From Candidatus Latescibacterota bacterium (GTDB lineage Bacteria; Latescibacterota; UBA2968; GCA-2709665): a stretch of 64,000 nt of DNA. This document shows, in pieces, positions 16,774-29,692 of the stretch (the first letter of the stretch is position 1; each line of letters starts with the position of its first letter). The stretch is from positions 176,705 through 240,704 of the forward strand of contig CAXXXF010000013.1 in the NCBI GenBank assembly GCA_963667175.2, in the 5' to 3' direction. Under the pieces are notes generated by a model. That model saw nothing but the letters and a program-made list of their open reading frames with translations, had not been told where the DNA came from and did not search any database. The position numbers and the translations under genes are program-made.

Positions 16774-17379
16774 TTACGACAATACACTTCGAATATACCC
16801 TAAGCCGTCGACGAATTTTGTCAGCAGTCGGCAATCGCGTTGAGTCAGTTCGGTTTCAATGTCCGGATTGGCGAAATCTCTGGAGTTTGTGGTTATGAAA
16901 CAGCGTGACTCGGGAGAACTCCTGTTCAGATGATCGACAACCGAAGCGTAAACGATCGAGTCTTGCGGAGAAAGGGTAAGCGTCCTTTGGAAATTTATCG
17001 CCGCTCTGATAATATTCAATCCAGTCGGTATTACTTCAACGGTCCCCAGGATTTCTTCCAGGGTTTCATCCAACCGGCGCTTCTCCTCCTCACCACTTCG
17101 GATCAACACGCCGGTGAGTTCGTCGAAATGTTTGGATGCATCCTCATAAGGACTTGAACGAGAAAGTTCCCGAATGGCTGTTGTAAGATCTTCGTGAATC
17201 CCGACTCTTCGCTTCGAGCGGCGAACCCACGTTTCGTAAGGTTCACCGATACTGAATGCGGGTAACACCATACGAATCTCCCCCGATTCCGATAGACGCA
17301 AAAGTGCCGAGCAATGCTCATGCTCGGCTTGAAGAAATGCCAGTTCAAGTACGAAATTCGACTCCAGGTATACAATCAT
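16774..17379 (-). CDS. PIN-domain ribonuclease-like protein
   Basis: VYLESNFV, SIGE, LSPQDSIVYAS and FITTNSRDF acidic PIN motifs. Confidence 0.75.
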   Translation of the reverse strand: MIVYLESNFVLELAFLQAEHEHCSALLRLSESGEIRMVLPAFSIGEPYETWVRRSKRRVGIHEDLTTAIRELSRSSPYEDASKHFDELTGVLIRSGEEEKRRLDETLEEILGTVEVIPTGLNIIRAAINFQRTLTLSPQDSIVYASVVDHLNRSSPESRCFITTNSRDFANPDIETELTQRDCRLLTKFVDGLGYIRSVLS

Positions 17380-17843
17380 GTCGTAGCTTCGAGTTCAAGG
17401 GAACCGTTTGTAACTGCTCTATATAATCCCGAGTCAAATATCCATTTGAGATTACCGTCAATCGAGTCAGGTCTCAGGTCCGCATGAAGTATATCTTCCA
17501 GCCACGACACCGTAAGCATTTCCAGCCCATATCGACTTAGTTCGATAAGGGATTGGTTGTATTTGAGATATGGTGCGAGTATGTCGCCAGCCTCGATCTT
17601 ATAGTCAGGTTTTGCCAGACGATCTGCTGTAGAAGACTCCGTCCAAAGGTATAGAAAGTCGGGGAGTACTAGCAGAAAGAAGGGCGCAGGAGGCAGAAAC
17701 GAATGGGCCAGCAAGTTGCGACGCATCAGGGTGACCCACTCGGCAGATGCACCGGGTACGTTCTTAATTTCCAGGACGAGTTGGAGTGTTCCATCGGCGC
17801 CGGACACCGCTATGTCGACGTTTCTCACTGTACGGACCTCCAC
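17376..17843 (-). CDS. Hypothetical protein with PD-(D/E)xK-like motif
   Basis: VDIAV...LVLEIKN. ATGA overlap with the PIN gene. Confidence 0.6.
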   Translation of the reverse strand: MEVRTVRNVDIAVSGADGTLQLVLEIKNVPGASAEWVTLMRRNLLAHSFLPPAPFFLLVLPDFLYLWTESSTADRLAKPDYKIEAGDILAPYLKYNQSLIELSRYGLEMLTVSWLEDILHADLRPDSIDGNLKWIFDSGLYRAVTNGSLELEATT

Positions 17844-17955: not shown

Positions 17956-18135
17956 GCGATTGCTGGAAGAAAAATCCTCTAAATTGCGTTCGTCCATCGC
18001 TGGTTCTTCAGCAGCCTTCCCTTCTGGTAGTACAGCTCCGCCAGGGGCATTTCCTTTAGTGCTTCGTGCCCGAGCGCTTCCGCCCTGGTCAACCACTTCG
18101 AAACCTTCCCTCAGTTCGATTTGTTATCGATTGAT

Positions 18136-18168
18136 GCGCCGGCGGCTTTTGTCGCCGGTGTTTTTTTT
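18136..18168 (+). terminator. Rho-independent terminator
   Basis: GCGCCGGCGGC-TTTT-GTCGCCGGTGT stem running into a T8 tract. Confidence 0.7.
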
Positions 18169-18344
18169 GCGGGAAGCAGAGGTTGCGGCAGGCTGAAGAC
18201 CGTGCAAAGTGCAACATCGTTTCAGACGTGTGATGACGATTGGAACGGATCATTCAACGTTCCGCAGCGGGACGGCCGCCTGGCGAAGGGTTGAAGATAA
18301 ACTCGCATTTGCGGGCCAGCCAGTTACGCCGAGGGCATTGCGAA

Positions 18345-18359
18345 TGGCACGAGGATTGC
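18345..18359 (+). promoter_or_regulatory. sigma54 (-24/-12) promoter upstream of the precursor peptides
   Basis: TGGCACG-AGGA-TTGC matches the TGGCACG-N4-TTGC consensus exactly. Confidence 0.65.
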
Positions 18360-18587: not shown

Positions 18588-18779
18588 ATGAACAGAAGCA
18601 TTGCATCGAGCCCTGCGGCGTCTCACGAAGTTCCGACCCGTCTGCCGGTTCAGACGGAAGACCTGACCGCCGGGCAAACCGCGCGGGTCTCGGGAGGAAG
18701 AATACGCTGGTGGAACATATTCGGAGAACTATTCGGCGCCGATCCGCCGGAGACGGGTGATTCCGGTTCGGTACTGTAG
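18588..18779 (+). CDS. Double-glycine leader precursor peptide 1 (63 aa)
   Basis: AAAGGAGGT SD. Leader ends EDLTAGQTARVSGG; predicted core RIRWWNIFGELFGADPPETGDSGSVL. Confidence 0.7.
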   Translation: MNRSIASSPAASHEVPTRLPVQTEDLTAGQTARVSGGRIRWWNIFGELFGADPPETGDSGSVL

Positions 18780-18850
18780 TGGTGAAGGAACTCGTGAATC
18801 AGGTCTGACTGAGAGGCATCGCAGAGACAATTCAGAAAGGAGTTGACGAA

Positions 18851-19039
18851 GTGACTGATCGAATCCGACCGCAGCCGGCACATGCCTTCTTGGCCTGTGG
18901 CCAACTTCCAGGGCGGGAAACCAACCTTGCACCGCCTGAGATGAGGAATGCATCTGGTGGAATTGGTATGCCACCCATTTTACCAGTAGCGATTGCCAGA
19001 CTTATCGCCGAGGCAGTCGTAGATTATTTCGACGACTGA
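18851..19039 (+). CDS. Double-glycine leader precursor peptide 2 (62 aa)
   Basis: AAAGGAG SD, GTG start. Leader ends TNLAPPEMRNASGG; predicted core IGMPPILPVAIARLIAEAVVDYFDD. Confidence 0.7.
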   Translation: MTDRIRPQPAHAFLACGQLPGRETNLAPPEMRNASGGIGMPPILPVAIARLIAEAVVDYFDD

Positions 19040-19466
19040 AATTGAGTGCGGGGCCTGTCAGGCGGAAAGTAATCCATCCTGCCGATATCGACTACTGATG
19101 TAGCGGGCTTCTCAGAAGACTCCGTGAAGCCAGCACGGAATCGTCCGCAATTCAACCCAACGGAGAATTGCCCAGGTTGCATTCAGAGTCGGTAGCCGGA
19201 TCCTGCCGGGCCTTGCTGAAGCGATCGAGAAAGGCCGTGATAAAGTGACGGTCCATGTTACATTGGGGTCCAGTGGATTTTCGAAAGGCGGACGCCGATC
19301 TACCGCCAGGGCTATCGAATGAGCACTGAATTTGAAGTCCCACCCAAGAATGCAGCTCGATTCTCGAACCCAATGACCGTCCGGAAAAGACACCGTATCC
19401 GTAACCCGAGATTCAGGCCATTTGGCTGCAAGACCGCAAATCCGATTAACTCTTCAGGAGGACATC

Positions 19467-19739
19467 ATGACACATGCATTGGCTTATCCGGCGGTGACCG
19501 ATGCTGGTCACAAGCTTGTAGCCTGCAACACACTGCAGCGACGGGAAGAATTGCTTGATAATGGACAGATGGGAGAAACTCAGGGTGGTGGTATCTTTAT
19601 ACCATTCCTCATCGTGGCCGCCAAAGCTGCAGCACCCTACGTAGCGACTGGTGTGACTGCTATCGTTGTTGGAGTGACAGTCGCTGAGTTAACGTCCAAA
19701 GACGACAACAAGTGCTGTAGCTGCAGCTGCAAAAAATGA
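19467..19739 (+). CDS. Double-glycine leader precursor peptide 3 (90 aa)
   Basis: AGGAGG SD. Leader ends ELLDNGQMGETQGG; hydrophobic 49-aa core ending KCCSCSCKK. Confidence 0.8.
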   Translation: MTHALAYPAVTDAGHKLVACNTLQRREELLDNGQMGETQGGGIFIPFLIVAAKAAAPYVATGVTAIVVGVTVAELTSKDDNKCCSCSCKK

Positions 19740-19766
19740 GAAGTAAGCACCAGTAGTTCTGAACAT

Positions 19767-19802
19767 GGGATAGGGGCAACTCGCGAAACCTGCTCCTATC
19801 CC
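19767..19802. terminator. Stem-loop after precursor 3 (attenuator, mRNA-stabilising hairpin or reverse-strand terminator)
   Basis: GGGATAGGGGCA...TGCTCCTATCCC 12-bp stem followed by GAAAAA. Confidence 0.5.
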
Positions 19803-19838
19803 GAAAAAGTTCGGTTGATTCAACAGTGGAGGTCCAGA

Positions 19839-20732
19839 ATGAAGTACTCGGTACTCGGTGGGAGATGGAGACGTTTTTTTCTCACGGCTTTGTTATATGC
19901 GTTCTTTTCCGTTGCGCCGGCGATGCTTATTCTCAGATTCGTCTTTAATCTGGACAATTCAGTGCTGTTAGCAATTCTCGTTGGTCAAGCATTTACGTTA
20001 TTAATCCTCCAAAAGACATTCTCCGAGTACGCTGGTAGAATATTGACCTCCGTCTGCAAACTCTATTCACCGAATTTCGGCCAAAAAGAAACCGGTGAAG
20101 ATCAAAAGGTCATGGAAGTGATCTACGACAAGGAAGATATCTACAATTTGTCCTTCTTGATGCTCTGGTTTTTGGGGATGACGATTTTCGTGTTGGGCGC
20201 CTTTCTTCCTTGGGAAATCGAGTTTCGATTTCCCGTCGACGATCTGTTGATTCTGTTGGGAAGTACTGTTGTTTTGTTCGTTATTCACGAAGCACTTCAC
20301 GGTCTTGCAGCAATAACGTGGGGAAAGTTCCCGATTAAATCGCTGCACTTCGGATTCAACATGCGCTTGATCGTGTTTTACTGTCACGCGGACAGGCCCA
20401 TGACGGTGAGCGCTTACCGGATGTTCGCGATCTTGCCGATGATCGTGACCACTCCGGTCGCTGGTCTGATAATATGGTGGGACCCGGCGATCTGGTCGCT
20501 ATTATTCTTCAGCGTCGTATTCTGCGGATGTGCTGGAGATGTGCTCGTCGTTTTCGGAATTCGTGGAGTAGAGAATGACAAATGGATTCAGGATCATCCG
20601 TCGGAAGTCGGATTCTACGTGTTGTCATCCAGAGAGACGCCGATAATACGCGATGATGAACCCTACGAACCAATGCGGAACGACCCGCATTCTTCATCCC
20701 CAACTTCTAAACTTCTACGCATTCTGCGTTGA
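19839..20732 (+). CDS. DUF3267-family membrane zinc metalloprotease with extra N-terminal TM segments
   Basis: IHEALHG (HEXXH), FYCH, GCAGD, DHPSEVG and multiple TM helices. GGAGG SD. Confidence 0.75.
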   Translation: MKYSVLGGRWRRFFLTALLYAFFSVAPAMLILRFVFNLDNSVLLAILVGQAFTLLILQKTFSEYAGRILTSVCKLYSPNFGQKETGEDQKVMEVIYDKEDIYNLSFLMLWFLGMTIFVLGAFLPWEIEFRFPVDDLLILLGSTVVLFVIHEALHGLAAITWGKFPIKSLHFGFNMRLIVFYCHADRPMTVSAYRMFAILPMIVTTPVAGLIIWWDPAIWSLLFFSVVFCGCAGDVLVVFGIRGVENDKWIQDHPSEVGFYVLSSRETPIIRDDEPYEPMRNDPHSSSPTSKLLRILR

Positions 20733-20760
20733 AGTCAAACTGTAAGGCTAAGGTATTCAG

Positions 20761-21603
20761 GTGGCGTACCCAAACCTGAAGCAGGCGATTTGGTTGCTTG
20801 CCTTATTTTTTATTTTTCAAGGGGTTTTAGCAGTGCCTGTAGGTATCGTCGACAGTTGCCTACTTGAAAACGAACTCCTGTGGGGAATTCTGTCGTTCGT
20901 GAGTCTCCTGGTCATTTTGGGTTACGTGACCAGCCGCACCGATCTGGACTGGAAATACCTGCGGCAGCTATTCAGCACAGGTTTCGATTGGCGGGTCTGG
21001 GCCTGCGTTGTAATTACGATCGTTGGCGTGCTTATATTTGACGTTGTTCTGATTGATGCATTGACTCGAATCGTTCCTTTGCCGGAGTGGCTGCACGATA
21101 CCTTTTCTCCGGAGATCGGACGCGAAACACCCATATGGTCAATCTTCGTCACCTCGGTCGTTATTGGGCCGTTTGTGGAAGAGTTGCTTGTCAGGGGTAT
21201 TATCCTGAGCGGCCTGCTGGCACACTACACAAGGGCCTCTGCAATAGTGTGGTCGGCAGTTTTATTTGGTGTTTATCATATCCACCCCTGGCAAGTTGTG
21301 CTGTCCTTTTTTACCGGCCTGGTCTGGGCATGGTGGGTGGTCCGGACCGGGTCCTTGCTTCCCGCGTTATTCGGGCACGCACTGATCAACTTCGTCGCGG
21401 CCACGACTGGGCATCTCCTTAACTCATCGCACCCGGTTTCAGAAGACCTCGATAATGCGTCATTTCTTCCGTGGTGGTTAGGTGTAGCCGGGCTGGCGCT
21501 CGCTACGCTTGGACTGTGGTGGTTTTCCCGGGTTGCAGTACCCGTTCAACACGATTCCGGGGGTGAGACGCTGCATGAAGACGTCGGTACGGATGCAGGA
21601 TAG
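20761..21603 (+). CDS. CPBP (CAAX/Abi) intramembrane metalloprotease, paralog 1
   Basis: EELLVRG, FGVYH and HALIN motifs; hydrophobic. Confidence 0.9.
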   Translation: MAYPNLKQAIWLLALFFIFQGVLAVPVGIVDSCLLENELLWGILSFVSLLVILGYVTSRTDLDWKYLRQLFSTGFDWRVWACVVITIVGVLIFDVVLIDALTRIVPLPEWLHDTFSPEIGRETPIWSIFVTSVVIGPFVEELLVRGIILSGLLAHYTRASAIVWSAVLFGVYHIHPWQVVLSFFTGLVWAWWVVRTGSLLPALFGHALINFVAATTGHLLNSSHPVSEDLDNASFLPWWLGVAGLALATLGLWWFSRVAVPVQHDSGGETLHEDVGTDAG

Positions 21604-21785
21604 CGACTGATGGGCCATGTCCGGCACTGAACGTAGCGGCGTCGATTGCGGGTCCATTGCTACGGCTGAAAACGGTGGATCACGAGCGCCTACATACTAT
21701 ATATAGTAAATACAGAATCGGAAAACAACGTGCGGTAGCCCGTCGGACATTGGTTAAGATCCAGACAATCGAATAAACCTCCAGT

Positions 21786-24700
21786 ATGCGTAAGAGTACA
21801 ATGGACGTTCTCGAGTTCTTTTCACAATCGTCGATTCGGTCGGAAACCGCTCGATTTCCCTTCGGGTCGGTCGTCTTCGATCAAGGGGAGCCCGGCGAAG
21901 CGTTCTACGTCGTCCAATCCGGCCGGTTGCGAGTGATCAGGCGTAATGCGGACGGCGATTCCGAAACGATCGGTTTCCTGTATCCCGGCGACCACTTCGG
22001 TGAGGGAGCGCTGCTGACCGGTCGCGGGCGCCGGGCATCGGTGCGCGCGGTGGAGGATTCAGATGTATTGCGGGTGTCCCGGGACGATTTCGCCAGGTTA
22101 TTGAGAAAAGAACCCGAACTGAAAGCACATCTCCACGATCATGTGGCGAATATCGCGCACAGGAATTTCACCCGATATCTGAAGGGGTCCGTTTCCGGCG
22201 ACGGGACGCGGAGACTGCTCCGTCGTTTGAAGCGGGAGGAGATTGCGAGGGGAGCGACGGTTGCCGGTCCCGGTCACTCGCGAGGGCGGTTCTGCGTGGT
22301 GGGAAGCGGCGAGTTGGTGATGACGTCCGGGGATGGCGGCGACCATCGTCTGGGCGCGGGTCATTTCTACGAGGAAACCGATCACTCCGACGGAGAGACC
22401 CCGGTTGTCCGCAGTTCCCGGGACAGTGTTCTGTTCTACCTGGACGAGAGCGACTTTCGGGTACTTGGCGAAGCGGCCGCCGAGTTGGGGTCGGCGACCG
22501 CCCTGGTGCGCCAATTGCGCGCAGCAGAGAATTCGAACGTGTCACCGTCTCTCGGGACCCGTCCTTCCGAGGCGCGCGCCCTGGTCGAAGCCCGATCGCC
22601 AGATGGGAAAGACGTCACCGACGCGAATGGACCGGCAACCGGAATCGGGAGCGGCGAATCGGAACAGGGCAGAAACCGCGCGCCGTCGTCGTTCCGTTTT
22701 CCATTCCTGAAACAGCACGATCAGTCGGATTGCGGCGCGGCATGTCTGGGGATGATCTGCAAGTATTACAAGATGCCGATCGGGCTGAACCGGCTGCGCG
22801 ATATGTGCAACGTTTCACGCGACGGCACGTCGATGGCGGCGCTGGCCGAGGCGGCGGAGACGCTCGGGTTCGTCACGCGGGGCGTGCGCACGGGTTATGA
22901 AGCGCTGATGCGGACCGGGCTTCCGGCGATTCTGCACTGGAAAGGCAACCATTTTGTGGTGTTGTATGAAATATTCAAAAAGAAGGTGAGAATCGCCGAC
23001 CCCGGCCTGGGTATCCGCACGCTCTCCCGTGAGGAGTTTGAGAAGAGTTGGACCAATATGGCCCTCTTGCTGGAATACACGGATCAGGTGTCCGAGAATG
23101 AACCCTCCAGGTCTTCCTTCAAACGGTTCTTCCCCTTGATCAAACCCTATACGCCCATCCTGATCGAGGTGTTGCTGGCGTCCCTCGTGCTCAGCCTGTT
23201 CGGGCTGGCTTCACCGGTATTCACGCAGACAATCGTGGACCAGGTGCTTGTGCATCATGACAGGGATCTGTTGAACCTGATGCTGGCGGGAATGGTCGTT
23301 GTGGCGCTGTTCCAGATGGGCACGTCGACGTTACGGGCTTATCTGATCGGTTATATCAGCGCGCGTCTCAGCCTGACCATGCTGTCCAGGTTCTACCGGC
23401 ACCTGCTGGGTCTTTCCATGCGGTTCTTCGCGCTCAGGCGCACCGGCGATCTGACCACGCGGTTCAAGGAGAATGCCACAATCCAGCGCCTGTTTACGGA
23501 TACAACCGTGTCCGCGATACTGGACTTCATCATGTTATTCGTCTACCTCGGGCTGATGTTCTATTACAACTGGGAGTTGACGCTCGTGATGTTGATTTTC
23601 GCGCCGCTATCCGTGGGTCTCACGCTGATCTATACGCCGATATTGAAGTCCTTCAGCCAGCGCGCCTTTCTTGCCCGCGCGGAACAATCGTCCGTGCTGA
23701 TCGATTCATTGCACGGCGTCGACGTGGTGAAGGCCGAGGCCGTCGAACGCGTCACCCGCTGGCAATGGGAAGGGAAGTTCACGAAAGAAATCCAGATCGG
23801 GTTCAAGCGTCTGAAGATGGAGATGCTGTTCGGGGCGGGGGGCAGTATGATCAATCTTTTGAGTTCAACCGTGATCCTGTGGTACGGCGCGTCCCTGGTT
23901 ATGGAAGGGGAGTTGTCCGTGGGGCAGTTGATGGCGTTCAACGCGCTCATCGGCAACGTTATGGGACCTGTAATGGGGTTGATCGGCGTCTGGCCGGAAG
24001 TGCAGGAAGCCCGCGTCGCACTGGACAGGCTGAACGACGTGTACGACGCGAAGATGGAGGACGCGCGCCAGCGAGGACAAGGCATGAGACTGAAACGGGT
24101 GAGAGGGCGCGTGGAATTCGACGAGGTGTTTTTCAGGTACGGCGTGGGCTCCGACGAACCCTACGTGTTGAACAATATCAACCTGAATCTCGAACCGGGA
24201 CGCAAAGTCGCAATCGTAGGGCGGAGCGGGGCGGGCAAGACCACGCTGGTGAAGCTGGTGCCGCGCCTGTTCGATCCCTCTGAAGGGCGGGTGACCCTCG
24301 ATGGGGTGGACGTGCGCGACCTGGATCCGCACTGGCTTCGGCGCCAGGTGGGCATGGTGATGCAGGATCCGTTCCTGTTCAGCGGCACGATTTCGGAAAA
24401 CATCGCGGTCGGAGAAGCGGACGCCGATATGGATCGGGTCCTTGAAGTGGCGAGAATGGCCTGTGTACAGGACTTTGTGACCGAGATGCCCCTGGGATTT
24501 GAGACAAGAGTCGGTGAGCAGGGGATCGGATTGTCCGGCGGACAGCGGCAACGGATTGCGATAGCGAGAGCGCTGTACCGTGATCCGGGAATCCTGATCT
24601 TCGACGAAGCCACAAACGCGCTGGATACGGACTCCGAAGGCGCGATCCAGGCCAACCTGGACCTTTTCCTCGAAAACCGCACGGCGATGATCATTGCTCA

Positions 24701-24842
24701 TCGTTTGAGTACCGTGCGGGATGCAGACGTGATTGTCGTGTTGGAAAAGGGCCATATCGTCGACACGGGGACGCATGAAGAACTCATGGATCGCCGCGGC
24801 CTCTACTACCACATGGCCGGCCAGCAGTTGCATATGGCTTGA
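21786..24842 (+). CDS. Peptidase-containing ABC transporter (cNMP-binding domains + C39 peptidase + ABC)
   Basis: cNMP domain (QGEPGEAFYVVQSG...GDHFGE...RRASVRA) plus a degenerate second copy. C39 QHDQSDCGAACL...HFVV...ADP. GRSGAGKT, LSGGQRQR, DEAT and IAHRL. Confidence 0.95.
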   Translation: MRKSTMDVLEFFSQSSIRSETARFPFGSVVFDQGEPGEAFYVVQSGRLRVIRRNADGDSETIGFLYPGDHFGEGALLTGRGRRASVRAVEDSDVLRVSRDDFARLLRKEPELKAHLHDHVANIAHRNFTRYLKGSVSGDGTRRLLRRLKREEIARGATVAGPGHSRGRFCVVGSGELVMTSGDGGDHRLGAGHFYEETDHSDGETPVVRSSRDSVLFYLDESDFRVLGEAAAELGSATALVRQLRAAENSNVSPSLGTRPSEARALVEARSPDGKDVTDANGPATGIGSGESEQGRNRAPSSFRFPFLKQHDQSDCGAACLGMICKYYKMPIGLNRLRDMCNVSRDGTSMAALAEAAETLGFVTRGVRTGYEALMRTGLPAILHWKGNHFVVLYEIFKKKVRIADPGLGIRTLSREEFEKSWTNMALLLEYTDQVSENEPSRSSFKRFFPLIKPYTPILIEVLLASLVLSLFGLASPVFTQTIVDQVLVHHDRDLLNLMLAGMVVVALFQMGTSTLRAYLIGYISARLSLTMLSRFYRHLLGLSMRFFALRRTGDLTTRFKENATIQRLFTDTTVSAILDFIMLFVYLGLMFYYNWELTLVMLIFAPLSVGLTLIYTPILKSFSQRAFLARAEQSSVLIDSLHGVDVVKAEAVERVTRWQWEGKFTKEIQIGFKRLKMEMLFGAGGSMINLLSSTVILWYGASLVMEGELSVGQLMAFNALIGNVMGPVMGLIGVWPEVQEARVALDRLNDVYDAKMEDARQRGQGMRLKRVRGRVEFDEVFFRYGVGSDEPYVLNNINLNLEPGRKVAIVGRSGAGKTTLVKLVPRLFDPSEGRVTLDGVDVRDLDPHWLRRQVGMVMQDPFLFSGTISENIAVGEADADMDRVLEVARMACVQDFVTEMPLGFETRVGEQGIGLSGGQRQRIAIARALYRDPGILIFDEATNALDTDSEGAIQANLDLFLENRTAMIIAHRLSTVRDADVIVVLEKGHIVDTGTHEELMDRRGLYYHMAGQQLHMA

Positions 24843-24869
24843 ACTTCCTGCCTACGAGGCGCCGGTACT

Positions 24870-26270
24870 ATGACGGGACACCCGCCGAAACCCTCACCGG
24901 GCACAACGCCGCCGGTCGTTGCCGGGCAACGGGACGACCCCGCAGAAGACATGCGCGCGTTTATCGGTTCTCTTCGACCGTTTTGGGGTCGGGCGCTGCT
25001 ATATATCGTGCTGCTTTTTGTCGGCATCGCGGTGGTCTGGGCGTGGTGGGGCGAGGTAGACGTGGTCGCGTCAGCGCCATTCAGGCTCGTGCCGCTCGGA
25101 AAAGTGAAGATATTGCAGGCCCGTCGAGGCGGTGAGATCGAATACATCGGAATCGCGGAAGGCGACCACGTCGAAGAAGGCCAACTGCTGTTCAAGCTCA
25201 AATCGTGGGAAACCTGGGGAGACCTGCGTGAACTCGAACAGGCGGAAGTAGCGTTTCAGAAGGCCGAGTACGATTTCCACCAGGTGTTGCCTCAGAAGAC
25301 CGGATTAAACCGGGAGACGATCGCTTCGCTGAAGAAACGGCTTGCCGTTCTGGAGCGGTTTGCGGCAGCACATCAGAATGCCCTGGAGGACTACCAGGCC
25401 GACTCGGGTGACGTCGAGGCCACCGGAAGGAGCCCGTCGGACGGGGAACTGCAGGCGCAAATCAGCTTTCGGCAGGCCGAGATCGACCATCTGAAACAGG
25501 ACTACACGCAGCAGAAAATGCTGTACGAACGCCAATTGATCAGCAGGGCGGAGATCAATCGCGCACGCGTCAGATATCTGAGCGCCCTTGCGGCGCTTCC
25601 CGGACGCATGTCGGAAATCTACAAGAACGAAACGGCGGTCCAGGATCTCAAGCGCCAGATTCTCGAGGCTCGCATCGCCCACGGTCGCGAGGCCGCGCAG
25701 ATAAGGCACGCACACAAGACCGCGCGGCTGAGACTGGATCAGGCGCACAAACGCGTCGATCGCCAGCTTGACGCCGAATCGGACCTGATTCTGGCCCCGG
25801 AGTCCGGAATGGTAACCCGGGTGGAGGTGAATACGCTCGGACAGGTCATCAACAAAGGACAGGCTCTGGTGACACTGGCGCCGGCGTCCGCGCCGATCGT
25901 CGCCGAATTGACTGTTTTGAACAAGGACGTGGGCCTGCTCAAGCCGGGACAGATCGTCAAACTGAAATACGACGCATTCGCGTTCCAGGACTTCGGAATC
26001 AAACGCGGATGGCTCAAGCAGATCTCGCCGGATGCCGTCATCGACGAGACCGTAGGACCGATATTCAAAGGCGTCGTTGAATTGGAGGAGACCACCATGG
26101 CCGTGAAAGGACAGGAAAAGCCGCTCCTCTTCGGCATGAAGGGCACGGCGGAGATCATGACGGACCGTCAGTCGGTCCTTCTGATGCTGCTGAGTCCATT
26201 GCGAAAGCTGTACGAATCCGCAACGTACGACGCCGCGACAATGCCGTCCGTGCGCCGGGGTGAAACGTGA
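24870..26270 (+). CDS. HlyD-family membrane fusion protein
   Basis: N-terminal TM, EGDHVEEGQLL, long coiled coil, ILAPESG, KYDAFAFQDFG and GMKGTAEI. Confidence 0.9.
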   Translation: MTGHPPKPSPGTTPPVVAGQRDDPAEDMRAFIGSLRPFWGRALLYIVLLFVGIAVVWAWWGEVDVVASAPFRLVPLGKVKILQARRGGEIEYIGIAEGDHVEEGQLLFKLKSWETWGDLRELEQAEVAFQKAEYDFHQVLPQKTGLNRETIASLKKRLAVLERFAAAHQNALEDYQADSGDVEATGRSPSDGELQAQISFRQAEIDHLKQDYTQQKMLYERQLISRAEINRARVRYLSALAALPGRMSEIYKNETAVQDLKRQILEARIAHGREAAQIRHAHKTARLRLDQAHKRVDRQLDAESDLILAPESGMVTRVEVNTLGQVINKGQALVTLAPASAPIVAELTVLNKDVGLLKPGQIVKLKYDAFAFQDFGIKRGWLKQISPDAVIDETVGPIFKGVVELEETTMAVKGQEKPLLFGMKGTAEIMTDRQSVLLMLLSPLRKLYESATYDAATMPSVRRGET

Positions 26271-27070
26271 TGCGCCGTGAGGATGAACACGAAGCCACAA
26301 ACGCGGCCGGGACTGCATCGCTGGTTCGGGTCAATGGAATCGACGTGTCCCTGAAGCAGGTCGTGCGACATCTGGGCGTCGCAGACAAGCTCGGATTCCT
26401 CGGTGACTACGCTCGAAGAGAACTGGTGCGGCAACTCGCGGAGAGGGAGGGCATCCACGCGAAGGCTGAGGATATCCAGCGCGACGTGGACGACTGGCGG
26501 TATCGACGGCGCCTGGAACGCGTGGAAGATACGGAAGCCTGGCTCCTGTCCAGAGGCATTACGCTCGGTGACGTCGCCGAAGACGCCCAGGTAAGACGAT
26601 TGGAGCGTATGATGTCCCAAAAAGTCTCGGAGGGAAGGATCGAAGCCTACTTCGCACAGCACACGCTGGATTTCGACGAGGCCGAGGTCTGCTGGATTTT
26701 CCATCAGAATCGTGGCGTCATAGACGAAATCGGATCTCAGACCCGTGAAGAGGGCGCCAATTTCTGCGCATTCGCCCGCGAATTCTCTCAGGATGAGCGC
26801 ACGCGGCCGGCAGGCGGGTTTATGGGGCGGTTGCGGCGAGAGCATTTGCCGAAGGGCATTGCCGCGCGCCTCTTCGCTGCCGCGCCGGGTGAAATCTTCG
26901 GTCCCGAAAAAGCGCCGGGTGGCTTCGCGCTGTATATGCTGCAGAGAAGCTACCCGGCAACGCTGGCCGATCGCGTCATCGACGAGATTCGCGACACATT
27001 GTTCAACCACTGGCTGCACGGGGAGATGCAACGGGCGGACATTCGCTATCCGGTCAGGGAATCAGTATAG
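26270..27070 (+). CDS. PpiC/parvulin-like rotamase-related protein (putative peptide maturation/export accessory)
   Basis: FCAFAREFSQDERTRPAGGFMG...GEIFGP parvulin-like motif with a SurA-like N-terminus. Overlaps the HlyD stop. Confidence 0.75.
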   Translation: MRREDEHEATNAAGTASLVRVNGIDVSLKQVVRHLGVADKLGFLGDYARRELVRQLAEREGIHAKAEDIQRDVDDWRYRRRLERVEDTEAWLLSRGITLGDVAEDAQVRRLERMMSQKVSEGRIEAYFAQHTLDFDEAEVCWIFHQNRGVIDEIGSQTREEGANFCAFAREFSQDERTRPAGGFMGRLRREHLPKGIAARLFAAAPGEIFGPEKAPGGFALYMLQRSYPATLADRVIDEIRDTLFNHWLHGEMQRADIRYPVRESV

Positions 27071-27314
27071 CAGGACTTTCATCATACGCGAAGCGGAAGC
27101 GGTTGATGGGGTAGTTCGACTGTGCCGATCCTTCAGTTCTGAAGGCGCGGCTCTCACTGCAAGGGATGCGCCGGAATGATGAATCCGGGAAGTCCGCCGC
27201 TTGTTACCGGCGCGCGAACCTGGATCTAATGGACAATGAAGAATCGTCTGCGGCGGCAGTGTCCTCCGGATATCTGATTTGCCGGCAAATGACGTTCGAA
27301 TGAGGAGGGAGTAG

Positions 27315-28142
27315 ATGGCCTATCCGAATCTGAAGCAATCCGTTTGGTTGGTGGTCCTGCTTTTGGTAGCAATGAACGCATTGGGGTTGGTGCTTCATTT
27401 CCTCGGCGCCGCGTCGGGCAATGCGACACGGATCTTTTATTACCTGGCATTGATCGCAAATCTGCCCGTTATTGGTCTGTTCGTGCTATACGCGCAACGT
27501 CGATCCGGTCGGCCGTGGTCCGAAGTCCTGCTTTTCAATACAGTGCCGTGGAAAATGTACTTTCCCATTTCCGTCTCGATCGTGGGATTGGGCATTTTCA
27601 TATCCAACCTTGCGAGCTTTGTTCAATATCTGATTCCAATCCCAGAAGAAATACTCGGCATGTTTCTTGATTTAATGGGCAGTAAAACACCATTTGGTCT
27701 TGCGTTTTATGTTCTGGCGATTCAAGCGCCGCTTACCGAGGAGGTCCTCTGCAGAGGCGTTATTCTGGGCGGGTTGTTATCCCACGGAACCCGGGGGCGT
27801 GCCATGCTGTGGTCCGCGTTTCTGTTCGCCGCGCTCCATATGAATCCCTGGCAATTTCCCGGAACATTGATACTGGGTATCGTATTTGCGTGGTGGGTCG
27901 TACATACGGGTTCCTTGGCGCCGGCGTTGTTCGGTCACGCGCTGAACAATTTCCTGTCACTGATAACGGTGCGTATGGAATTATTCCGACCTAACGAGGA
28001 TTGGCATATTGTAGAGTTTCTTCCCTGGTGGCTGTTTGCGAGCGGTATCGTCCTGGCCGTGGCCGGTTTGTGGTGGTTCAAGCAGATGGCGCAGCGCGAA
28101 GCGAAGCCGGTCGTTGCGCCGGAGGACCAGGAGCCCGCCTGA
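27315..28142 (+). CDS. CPBP (CAAX/Abi) intramembrane metalloprotease, paralog 2
   Basis: EEVLCRG, FAALH and HALNN. Shares the MAYPNLKQ start and FLPWWL with paralog 1. Confidence 0.9.
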   Translation: MAYPNLKQSVWLVVLLLVAMNALGLVLHFLGAASGNATRIFYYLALIANLPVIGLFVLYAQRRSGRPWSEVLLFNTVPWKMYFPISVSIVGLGIFISNLASFVQYLIPIPEEILGMFLDLMGSKTPFGLAFYVLAIQAPLTEEVLCRGVILGGLLSHGTRGRAMLWSAFLFAALHMNPWQFPGTLILGIVFAWWVVHTGSLAPALFGHALNNFLSLITVRMELFRPNEDWHIVEFLPWWLFASGIVLAVAGLWWFKQMAQREAKPVVAPEDQEPA

Positions 28143-28495
28143 TGTCACGACCCGTACGAATTCCTGTGTCAGATCTGCCGACCGATAACGTGATCCGTGG
28201 ATCAGGCGAAGCCAGGGGCGGGACGTTCGCCAACAATCCAGGGTTTCGCGAAGCCGCGGGCGGTCGCCCGCGTTTCCGTGCTGACACTTCGAATTCAATT
28301 AAAGTCTTGCAGCATGTGCTGCGTAATGGCTATTATGGAGGCGATCCGTTGGCAAGACCGCCTGCGCCGAGGAAGTACTATCCTTCAGGGCCGGAAGTTC
28401 GGGCTCTTCCCGAAAAAGCGCTCGCCTCATGTGGAATCGGTTCCGCCACACCCTCCCGAAATGCCCGGCCGTGCCGGCGAACGAGTGAATCGGTT

Positions 28496-29692
28496 ATGAT
28501 TCCTCGAAAAAGATTGGACATCGGCTGGCGCGATCTCTTCTTCGGCATGGGCCAATGCCTATCGGGCGATAACCGCGCGAAAGGGCACGCTGCCTGCCGC
28601 GAAAACACCGGCAATCCCGACGAGGCCCTTTTCTTTCTTTCGCTTCGCAGCGGCTTCGATGCCGTTCTCCAGGCGGCCCGTTTTCCGCGTGGATCGCACG
28701 TCCTCGTGTCCGCCATCACCATCCCCGACATACTCGAAATCATCAGGAGCCACGGTCTCGTGCCCGTTCCGGTCGATCTGGATCCCCAAACGCTCGAACC
28801 CGATCCGGACAGCCTGAACAGCGGGCTTACGCCAAGAGCCGTCGCGCTGCTGGCCACCCATCTATTCGGGGCGCGTATCCCAATGGATCCCCTGGTGCGC
28901 TTCGCGCGAAAGCATGGCCTGGTGCTGTTCGAAGACTGCGCCCAGGCCTATTGCGGTGACGGCTTTACTGGTCATCCGGAGAGCCACGTGCGCATGTTCA
29001 GCTTCGGCCCGATCAAGTACTATACCGCGTTGGGCGGCGGCCTGCTCTTCGTGCGCGATCCCGACCTCCGAGACGAGGTCAGACGGTTGCATCACAGCTA
29101 TCCGGTCCAGGGCAAGGCACGGTTCTTCTTGCGCCTCGCAAAATACGGCGTCGTTCTCCTGCTCAACAGACCCGGTCCCTATACGCTTCTATGCGCCGCG
29201 TGCCGCCTGCTGGGCATGTCGCACGATGCCGTGAGTTACCGCGCAACCCGCGGTTTCCGGGGGTTGGAACTGCTCAAGAAAATCCGCCGTCAACCCTGCG
29301 GCGCCCTTTTGCATTTATTGTCGAGGCGACTGCGCTCCAATGCACAGGAGCGCACGGGTTGCCGTAAGGAGGTCATCGCGTTTCATCGAAGCGTTCCGGA
29401 ACTCTGTTATCCGGGCCGACGCGCGGACCACTCGTACTGGCTCTTCGTCGTCCGTGTCGGAAATGCCGCGGACTTGTGTCGGCAACTCTGGGACGCCGGC
29501 TTCGACGCGCACCTGTGGCCGCCGTCGCTATGCGTGGTCCCGCCAGACCGTAATCTGCCGGGCCAGGCGCCAACTTTCGTCAGGGCGCTGTGGCCGCAAC
29601 TCCTGTTCCTTCCCGTTTACCCCCTCGTGGGGCGGGTCCGCGCGGGGCGTCTGAGCCGTATCGTGGGGAAGTGGGTCCGGATGCATGGGTGA
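28496..29692 (+). CDS. DegT/DnrJ/EryC1/StrS-family PLP aminotransferase
   Basis: VPVDLD, THLFG, FEDCAQ and FSFGPIK..TALGGG. Start placed at ATG 28496. Confidence 0.8.
   Translation: MIPRKRLDIGWRDLFFGMGQCLSGDNRAKGHAACRENTGNPDEALFFLSLRSGFDAVLQAARFPRGSHVLVSAITIPDILEIIRSHGLVPVPVDLDPQTLEPDPDSLNSGLTPRAVALLATHLFGARIPMDPLVRFARKHGLVLFEDCAQAYCGDGFTGHPESHVRMFSFGPIKYYTALGGGLLFVRDPDLRDEVRRLHHSYPVQGKARFFLRLAKYGVVLLLNRPGPYTLLCAACRLLGMSHDAVSYRATRGFRGLELLKKIRRQPCGALLHLLSRRLRSNAQERTGCRKEVIAFHRSVPELCYPGRRADHSYWLFVVRVGNAADLCRQLWDAGFDAHLWPPSLCVVPPDRNLPGQAPTFVRALWPQLLFLPVYPLVGRVRAGRLSRIVGKWVRMHG

Follow-up and report, generated by a model that had tools for sequence, protein, structure and literature searches.

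We describe here a locus in a Candidatus Latescibacterota genome which is, on balance, probably a polymorphic bacteriocin locus of class II microcin-like type, driven by sigma-54 and with immunity conferred by proteases, its peptides being unmodified in this genus. The locus lies in a 64,000-nt stretch, called the window below (G000:C13:176705-240704, where G000 is the genome itself). It consists of nine open reading frames (ORFs), all on the + strand and all where a preliminary description of this DNA had placed them: three short precursor genes (P1, P2 and P3), a DUF3267 protease, a first CPBP protease, a cNMP-C39-ABC exporter, an HlyD-type membrane fusion protein, a PpiC-like protein and a second CPBP protease. 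For comparison, 40 regions around the stronger matches to the PpiC-like protein were combined with two further loci and the window, giving 43 loci from 33 genomes, and the records of the PpiC-like relatives are metagenome-assembled genomes of Candidatus Latescibacterota or Gemmatimonadota. The window's genus comprises 15 genomes and 14 main loci. Genes in related loci were called with a simple ORF caller, so that a few genes are missed and frameshifted genes are split. At the level of sequence, the reality of the ORFs, the leader family, the catalytic triad of the exporter, the conservation of the promoter site, the co-variation of cores with proteases and the distribution of glycosyltransferases are established.

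The three short ORFs with strong Shine-Dalgarno (SD) sequences reported previously are present between positions 18588 and 19739. P1 (18588-18779, 63 aa, SD AAGGAGGTG) carries a 37-aa leader and a 26-aa amphipathic core. P2 (18851-19039, 62 aa, GTG start, SD AAGGAG) has a 37-aa leader followed by a 25-aa core with an acidic tail, and P3 (19467-19739, 90 aa, SD AGGAGG) a 41-aa leader followed by a 49-aa hydrophobic core ending in a conserved Cys tail. The leaders align on L(-12), Q/E(-8), T/M(-7) and GG, and the stretch H-x3-AC-x2-L-x2-RE-x2-L common to P2 and P3 is found, both as claimed; among the core descriptions, ‘Trp-rich’ proved true of this P1 allele only. Pooled pairwise dN/dS within the genus was 0.28-0.36 for leaders; for cores it was 0.22-0.35 in four of the five groups, namely those of P1, P2 and the most frequent P3 type. 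The control, the same leader DNA read in frame +1, gave 0.80-1.54, and HlyD gave 0.14. For the window-type P3, present in four copies, the core value was 0.72 versus 0.23 for the leader. The three small ORFs are conserved and under purifying selection.

The preliminary description had proposed a search for further precursors by leader motif. Iterated profiles returned 100 precursors in 41 of the 43 related loci, all defined by a double-glycine leader of 37-44 aa with the pattern C(-22)xxL(-19)P..L(-12)..G(-2)G. The common motif thus reaches further than first described, to an invariant L(-19). Among the 100 precursors, C(-22) occurs in 71, L(-19) in 100, P(-18) in 84, L(-12) in 93, E/Q(-8) in 84, M(-7) in 67 and G(-2) in 100, and the final pair is GG in 78, GL in 17 and GA in 3; the anchor used favoured these positions, and an independent alignment also has L and G invariant. 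Against 100,087 six-frame ORFs of its own genome, the profile matched just P1-P3 at E<=1.4e-10 (all three belonged to its training set), with the next best at 0.25, and no orphan precursor was found elsewhere in that genome. The loose spacing pattern alone is weak: of the genome's 1509 short starts with an SD in front of them, it picks out 14 distinct ORFs, P1-P3 included. In the phylum, the profile matches 41 of 168 genomes, which belong to 6 of the 49 genera and to two families within a single order; every genome of the window's genus is among them (15 of 15). Searching 1.84 billion representatives gave 121 matches, of which 101 are short precursor-like proteins; the twenty long proteins were discarded as repeat artefacts. 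Family models gave weak, core-driven matches only for the 100 precursors and none for the leader. Bacteriocin_IIc matched weakly in 4 of 100 cores, all from relatives (best 2.6e-5), and NHLP, Nif11 and HetP models matched none of the 100 at E<=0.1. By these model searches, the long double-glycine leader family is uncatalogued. A more distant subtype, found in genus g6 (L075-L081), combines an M16 peptidase pair and a Cys-rich membrane ORF of ~200 aa with PCAT, HlyD and PpiC-like genes and no glycosyltransferase (PCAT, peptidase-containing ATP-binding cassette transporter). Its precursors are very acidic, measure 150-200 aa and show the same C/L/GG spacing (by eye, three loci), and because this subtype lacks glycosyltransferases, the leader extension would be independent of them. 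Two other cores end with up to seven consecutive cysteines and acidic flanks (L047:15763-16014, - strand; L051:3311-3574, + strand), possibly for metal binding.

P1 is found in 14 of 14 main genus loci, as two allele types in 7 and 7 loci, and P2 in 12 of 14, while the P3 slot holds five core types over the same 14 loci. The window, L028 and L029 are ~90% identical in ABC/HlyD, yet the P3 core of each is of a different type. P3 occupies an exchangeable slot, and its core type co-varies with the gene behind it, which encodes a DUF3267 or CPBP protease. Among 45 run-terminal precursors, such a gene follows directly in 24 of 26 with a hydrophobic segment and in 4 of 19 without one, the threshold for a hydrophobic segment having been set after the data were seen and kin not being independent. 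Across the 14 units of the genus, similarity of the first protease tracks similarity of the core (rho 0.48, 0 of 5000 permutations) and does not track transporter distance (rho 0.00). Across all 21 units (of 28; proteases shorter than 150 aa were left out), the core-protease partial correlation is 0.23 (14 of 5000 permutations). Two families (L038, L051) have one core type in common, and in each of them a CPBP of the same deep, divergent clade comes next; L051 carries three tandem precursor-precursor-CPBP units. In two genomes, another core type lies with a membrane ORF of 80 aa, remote from any transporter, and a further one has a TPR gene set as its partner, also away from a transporter. Some loci retain proteases whose matching core was replaced.

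In the window, the domains previously assigned downstream of the precursors (DUF3267, two CPBP, C39 transporter, HlyD and rotamase) were recovered by domain searches. The DUF3267 protein (19839-20732, 297 aa, PF11667 at 1.8e-14), an intramembrane metalloprotease of the site-2 protease (S2P) clan, most likely starts at 19839 (ATG with GGAGG) rather than at 19815; it has six hydrophobic segments, HExxH at 150 and a distal Asp motif at 230-234. The first CPBP (Rce1-like) intramembrane protease (20761-21603, 280 aa) keeps EExxxR/FxxxH/HxxxN, and the motifs of the second (27315-28142) are likewise intact, so that catalytic motifs are kept in all three proteases; both CPBP genes match PF02517 at 2e-18. 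The position of the second is occupied across the genus by 1-4 CPBP copies after the PpiC-like gene. GC content falls from about 64% to 46-55% across the precursor-protease part. The DUF3267 protein is a candidate cognate immunity or maturation protein of P3, and the swapped protease partner probably serves self-protection. Two points favour immunity: the C39 domain by itself accounts for removal of the leader, and proteases are retained where the core in front of them has been replaced.

The exporter (21786-24842) is a PCAT with cNMP, C39 and ABC domains, its nearest solved relatives being PCAT1-type bacteriocin transporters and ComA. The C39 Cys, His and Asp described as intact are kept (Q310/C316/H389/D405), as they are in 42 of 43 loci, the match in the 43rd being truncated, and a C39 search of the genome found this exporter only. 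It is followed by the HlyD-type protein (24870-26270; TIGR01843 206.5 bits, cut-off 208.65), and six TolC-family ORFs are encoded elsewhere in the genome. The PpiC-like (PrsA/SurA-like) protein (26267-27070), described earlier as parvulin-like, does have a rotamase match (6.6e-10) and aligns to PrsA and SurA; the parvulin His pair is, however, replaced by near-invariant W143 and A221, the second of these positions being also visible in the SurA alignment. It is devoid of a hydrophobic signal segment and scores 91.3 bits against the peptide maturation model TIGR04500, half of the curated cut-off of 180; TIGR04500-type proteins are reported near graspetide loci (PMC8939145). The protein is probably a cytoplasmic chaperone, a role that would be likelier than isomerase activity because W143 and A221 replace the histidines.

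Upstream of P1, a putative sigma-54 (-24/-12) promoter, TGGCAC-N5-TTGC, lies at 18345-18359 on the + strand (TGGCACGAGGATTGC) and matches the sigma-54 consensus. In each of the 14 main genus loci the site precedes P1 by 241-245 nt (243 nt in the window); the 5.5 Mb genome holds 15 sites of this strict form and encodes RpoN with 10 full-length sigma-54 activators. If one mismatch is allowed, 13 of 24 glycosyltransferase-bearing loci have a similar site immediately ahead of the first glycosyltransferase or of a regulator, the upstream DNA of 4 more of the 24 being beyond the fetched stretch. A sigma-70 scan gave 4 sites versus 4.8 expected. Three further features accompany this region: a strong terminator-like hairpin at 18136-18169 (+), ~180 nt upstream of the sigma-54 site and conserved in several relatives, over which Rfam gave its only two matches, weak and far below gathering score; a long conserved 5′ region before P1 (18370-18587); and a 427-nt spacer before P3 (19040-19466), 77-83% identical in L028 and L030. 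Neither of the last two has an Rfam match, and some relatives carry an extra precursor between P2 and P3.

Sister lineages differ from the window's genus by glycosyltransferases (GTs) inside the operon. Two GT-B enzymes stand between promoter and precursors, and in 23 of 43 loci the gene immediately ahead of the precursors encodes a GT4 of 467 aa, usually preceded by a double GT; a UDP-GlcNAc 2-epimerase gene follows the PpiC-like gene in 10 loci. (Two conserved upstream genes of relatives had been considered as a kinase and a regulator, a reading rejected when Pfam showed glycosyltransferases.) The C-terminal domain of the GT4 occurs in 25 of 168 phylum genomes, all leader-bearing, and 40 of its 41 matches (a few of them fragments of one broken gene) have a leader no more than 700 nt downstream, mostly at 51-65 nt. 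Longer proteins carry this domain almost only alongside GT4 (42 of 43 matches). Neither the GT4 family nor the domain is found in the 15 genomes of the window's genus. The GT4 model (predicted local distance difference test, pLDDT, 90) has a GT-B fold (Z up to 33) with three extra strands and three helices (beta3-alpha3). A structure search with the isolated domain placed four structures of the RRE (recognition element of RiPPs, peptides that are synthesized ribosomally and modified post-translationally) in the top 23 of 48,161 chains, at a noise-level Z of 4.8-5.2 (root-mean-square deviation about 3, 52-59 aligned), below a ribosomal protein at Z 7.2. The domain matched no PDB sequence, its isolated model (pLDDT 67) had no Foldseek match, profile comparison with two PqqD-type sequences of the own genome gave nothing, and Atlas searches yielded no usable match.

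In a transporter tree rooted on the M16 subtype, the window's genus is placed inside a set of loci with GTs, and monophyly of the GT-bearing loci is rejected (approximately unbiased test, p-AU 5e-7; 23 of the loci used). GT loss in the window's genus appears the simplest reading, though recombination could mimic loss. The peptides of this genus would be unmodified, possible disulfides aside, because of the apparent loss of the ancestral GT pair. Core composition also differs: Cys is among the first three residues in 20 of 52 GT-lineage cores and 0 of 47 cores of the window's genus, and strongly acidic cores (net charge <= -5) number 43 of 52 versus 4 of 47. From their gene position, the GTs may act on the peptides. 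A wider reading, which we put forward tentatively as somewhat short of probable, would make the locus a sugar-free offshoot of an undescribed glycopeptide RiPP class, in which the sister GT4 with its RRE-like domain, together with the double GT and often the UDP-GlcNAc 2-epimerase, would bind the C-x2-L-P leader and glycosylate diverse, often acidic or N-terminal-Cys cores, while hydrophobic cores would travel with cognate S2P/CPBP immunity proteases.

For the locus of the window, read as a bacteriocin system, the following working can be proposed. Precursors would be made in the cytoplasm and probably held unfolded by the PpiC-like chaperone. The C39 domain would cut after the double glycine and the peptides would leave through PCAT-HlyD and one genomic TolC, as the intact motifs and established PCAT biology suggest. 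P3 would act on membranes as an antagonist, its core being one of an interchangeable set, and the DUF3267 and CPBP proteases behind it would degrade or neutralise incoming peptide within the inner membrane of the producer, extra protease copies being leftover immunity to the cores of other strains. P1 and P2 may be constant helper, second-component or inducer peptides, which is the least certain step.

Several points weigh against a bacteriocin with protease-type immunity. P1-P3 match no Pfam or NCBIfam model, bacteriocin models included, and the strongly acidic cores of the sister lineages are unusual for membrane-active bacteriocins. Adjacent genes recombine together, and co-variation is therefore no proof of function: since linkage alone can produce such patterns, the core-protease pattern shows cassettes. 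The characterised DUF3267 protease, TmcP, removes a leader rather than conferring immunity (PMC13712780), CPBPs serve in immunity, processing, receptor or regulatory roles (PMC9298176), and validated microcin immunity proteins have <=216 aa (PMC12219008), compared with 275-297 aa for the proteases here.

Compared with class II microcins and bacteroidetocins (PMC12219008), the locus shares small double-glycine precursors of a Gram-negative cell, export by PCAT, membrane fusion protein and TolC, and a membrane protein encoded right after the peptide. The window has 62-90 aa precursors with GG, a PCAT with intact C39 triad, a fusion protein and TolC; the short signal and the adjacent small immunity protein are missing. 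Instead of a signal of about 15 aa with its published motif, the leaders measure 37-44 aa with an added C-x2-L-P, the PCAT bears a cNMP domain, a PpiC-like gene and several precursors per locus are present, and intramembrane proteases replace the small membrane immunity protein. The similar cNMP-C39-ABC/HlyD/rotamase sets mentioned earlier for cyanobacteria do exist: the long-type trio with SurA/rotamase defines groups I, II and VI of Wang et al. 2011 (PMC3140520). Groups I and II resemble the locus by this trio and by diverse precursor arrays, and group II also by M16 peptidases, as in the sister subtype here; they belong to another phylum, the leaders here match none of their NHLP, Nif11 or HetP models, CAAX, Abi and glycosyl are unmentioned in that paper, and the clusters are themselves predictions. 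TMcin (PMC13712780) likewise has a DUF3267 protease (HExxH, distal Asp) next to a precursor that has a hydrophobic helix and cysteines at its C-terminus, but it is Gram-positive, with leader removal by TmcP and export by TmcBC, and without PCAT, HlyD or double-glycine cut. Streptococcal and lactobacillal class II loci (blp, pln, sil; covered in part by PMC9298176) share several double-glycine peptides, CPBP genes and allele swapping, whereas the present locus has no peptide-sensing kinase, a sigma-54 promoter and Gram-negative export. The sister lineages, with GTs inside the peptide operon, also recall the known glycosylated RiPPs, namely glycocins, cacaoidin and class IIb microcins. They differ by GT-B/GT4 enzymes with an extra C-terminal domain instead of the GT2 SunS type and by loci free of lanthionine or siderophore genes, and the window's genus has no GTs. 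The literature search gave no account of this system, although the supplements of PMC3140520, PMC11832590 and PMC12219008 could list such clusters. The earlier proposal of an undescribed multi-peptide, PCAT-exported system gains support from conserved precursors under selection, the intact C39 domain, the lack of detectable RTX repeats in the 95%-complete genome and the missing leader model.

Peptide signalling, in which the cores would be strain-specific pheromones, the membrane proteases would serve to trim, clear or help sense them, and the loop would be closed by a sigma-54 activator encoded elsewhere, is an unlikely alternative for which several features nevertheless speak. The two P1 alleles are scattered over the transporter tree in a pherotype-like manner, the conserved sigma-54 site requires an activator, some relatives carry genes for an activator or an AraC-type regulator upstream, and MroQ and SilX are precedents (PMC9298176). 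No receptor kinase was found in the window locus, however, the cores reach 50-115 aa and fall into 18 sequence clusters, and tandem precursor-protease units and orphan pairs fit toxin and immunity better. We give somewhat less credit still to maturation, in which hydrophobic cores would enter the membrane and receive a second cut from the cognate DUF3267 or CPBP protease, as TMcin does from TmcP. DUF3267 is indeed a family of S2P-clan proteases, TmcP removing the TMcin leader from a membrane-spanning precursor, and with its six hydrophobic segments the protein of the window resembles the subset that includes the escort part (PMC13712780); the proteases also come after hydrophobic cores. Yet the intact C39 domain already explains leader removal, and proteases kept after their matching core was replaced are expected of leftover immunity, not of processing enzymes.

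The preliminary description had left open whether the peptides are unmodified or modified in trans, and the second branch came out weaker: it is improbable that they are modified, for instance, by the RRE-radical SAM/GT4 cluster at G000:C15:872-892 kb (L068). This cluster encodes two radical SAM proteins (one with a PqqD-type match), GT4s and a kinase-GAF-sigma-54 activator; one radical SAM shares 53% identity with a radical SAM found upstream of two related loci, one GT shares 45% with half of the double GT seen in the sister lineages, and the conserved P3 Cys tail would suit a modification. But this RRE-radical SAM is present in 4 of 15 genus genomes and precursors in 15 of 15, the cluster has no leader match and a small upstream ORF of its own, and YcaO was not found in the genome by a search that matched its control. 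LanC was not found either, in a search that was also silent on its control. The cluster further holds a methyltransferase and an acyltransferase, and the 75-aa ORF at C15:879123, with a good ribosome site, is a possible precursor for it; a stand-alone PqqD-type protein sits among housekeeping genes at G000:C5:51724 (L070:8536-8958). Finally, a type I system for a large RTX-type protein, the small ORFs being incidental, is largely refuted and highly improbable. The best NCBIfam score of the exporter is to HlyB-type TIGR01846, at 625 bits under the cut-off of 726. In RTX type I secretion, HlyB carries an inactive C39-like domain. Here the catalytic Cys is kept, a search of the 95%-complete genome revealed no RTX repeat (control positive in 2 of 14), and precursors occur in 41 of 43 loci and are under selection.

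On the upstream side, a TMEM260-like membrane glycosyltransferase remnant occupies 17970-18191 (-). It comprises the C-terminal part only (tblastn 54-66% to residues ~550-735 of relatives' ORFs); the gene of a relative matches PF11028, and the gene flanks the locus in other genus members. This remnant is probably a neighbour, not part of the system: TMEM260-like, GtrA and DegT-type genes are treated as neighbours because their fixed position holds in one genus and the TMEM260-like gene is lost in several loci. A PIN-domain gene and its 155-aa partner (16774-17843, -, GC about 49%) replace the TMEM260-like/GtrA pair at the same site in 6 related loci. Directly downstream, in 15 genus loci, comes a DegT/DnrJ-type aminotransferase gene (28139-29692, +) that may be co-transcribed. 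Elsewhere, L047, L051 and L090 have an S41 peptidase and two uncharacterised exported-looking proteins between precursors and transporter, and L080 (G024:C1:396000-415999) is a degraded PCAT locus near an acyl-carrier-like ORF, an S8 peptidase-DUF1611 fusion and a GT.

With this locus, an uncultured lineage gains a polymorphic peptide system that spans the lineage and places more than 100 natural core variants behind a single leader. The locus is a test case for whether intramembrane proteases of the DUF3267 and CPBP families give a Gram-negative cell core-specific immunity, and another for the role of the PpiC-like partner of cNMP-PCATs. If the linked GT4 were truly a leader-directed, core-tolerant peptide glycosyltransferase, it would be a new RiPP tailoring enzyme.

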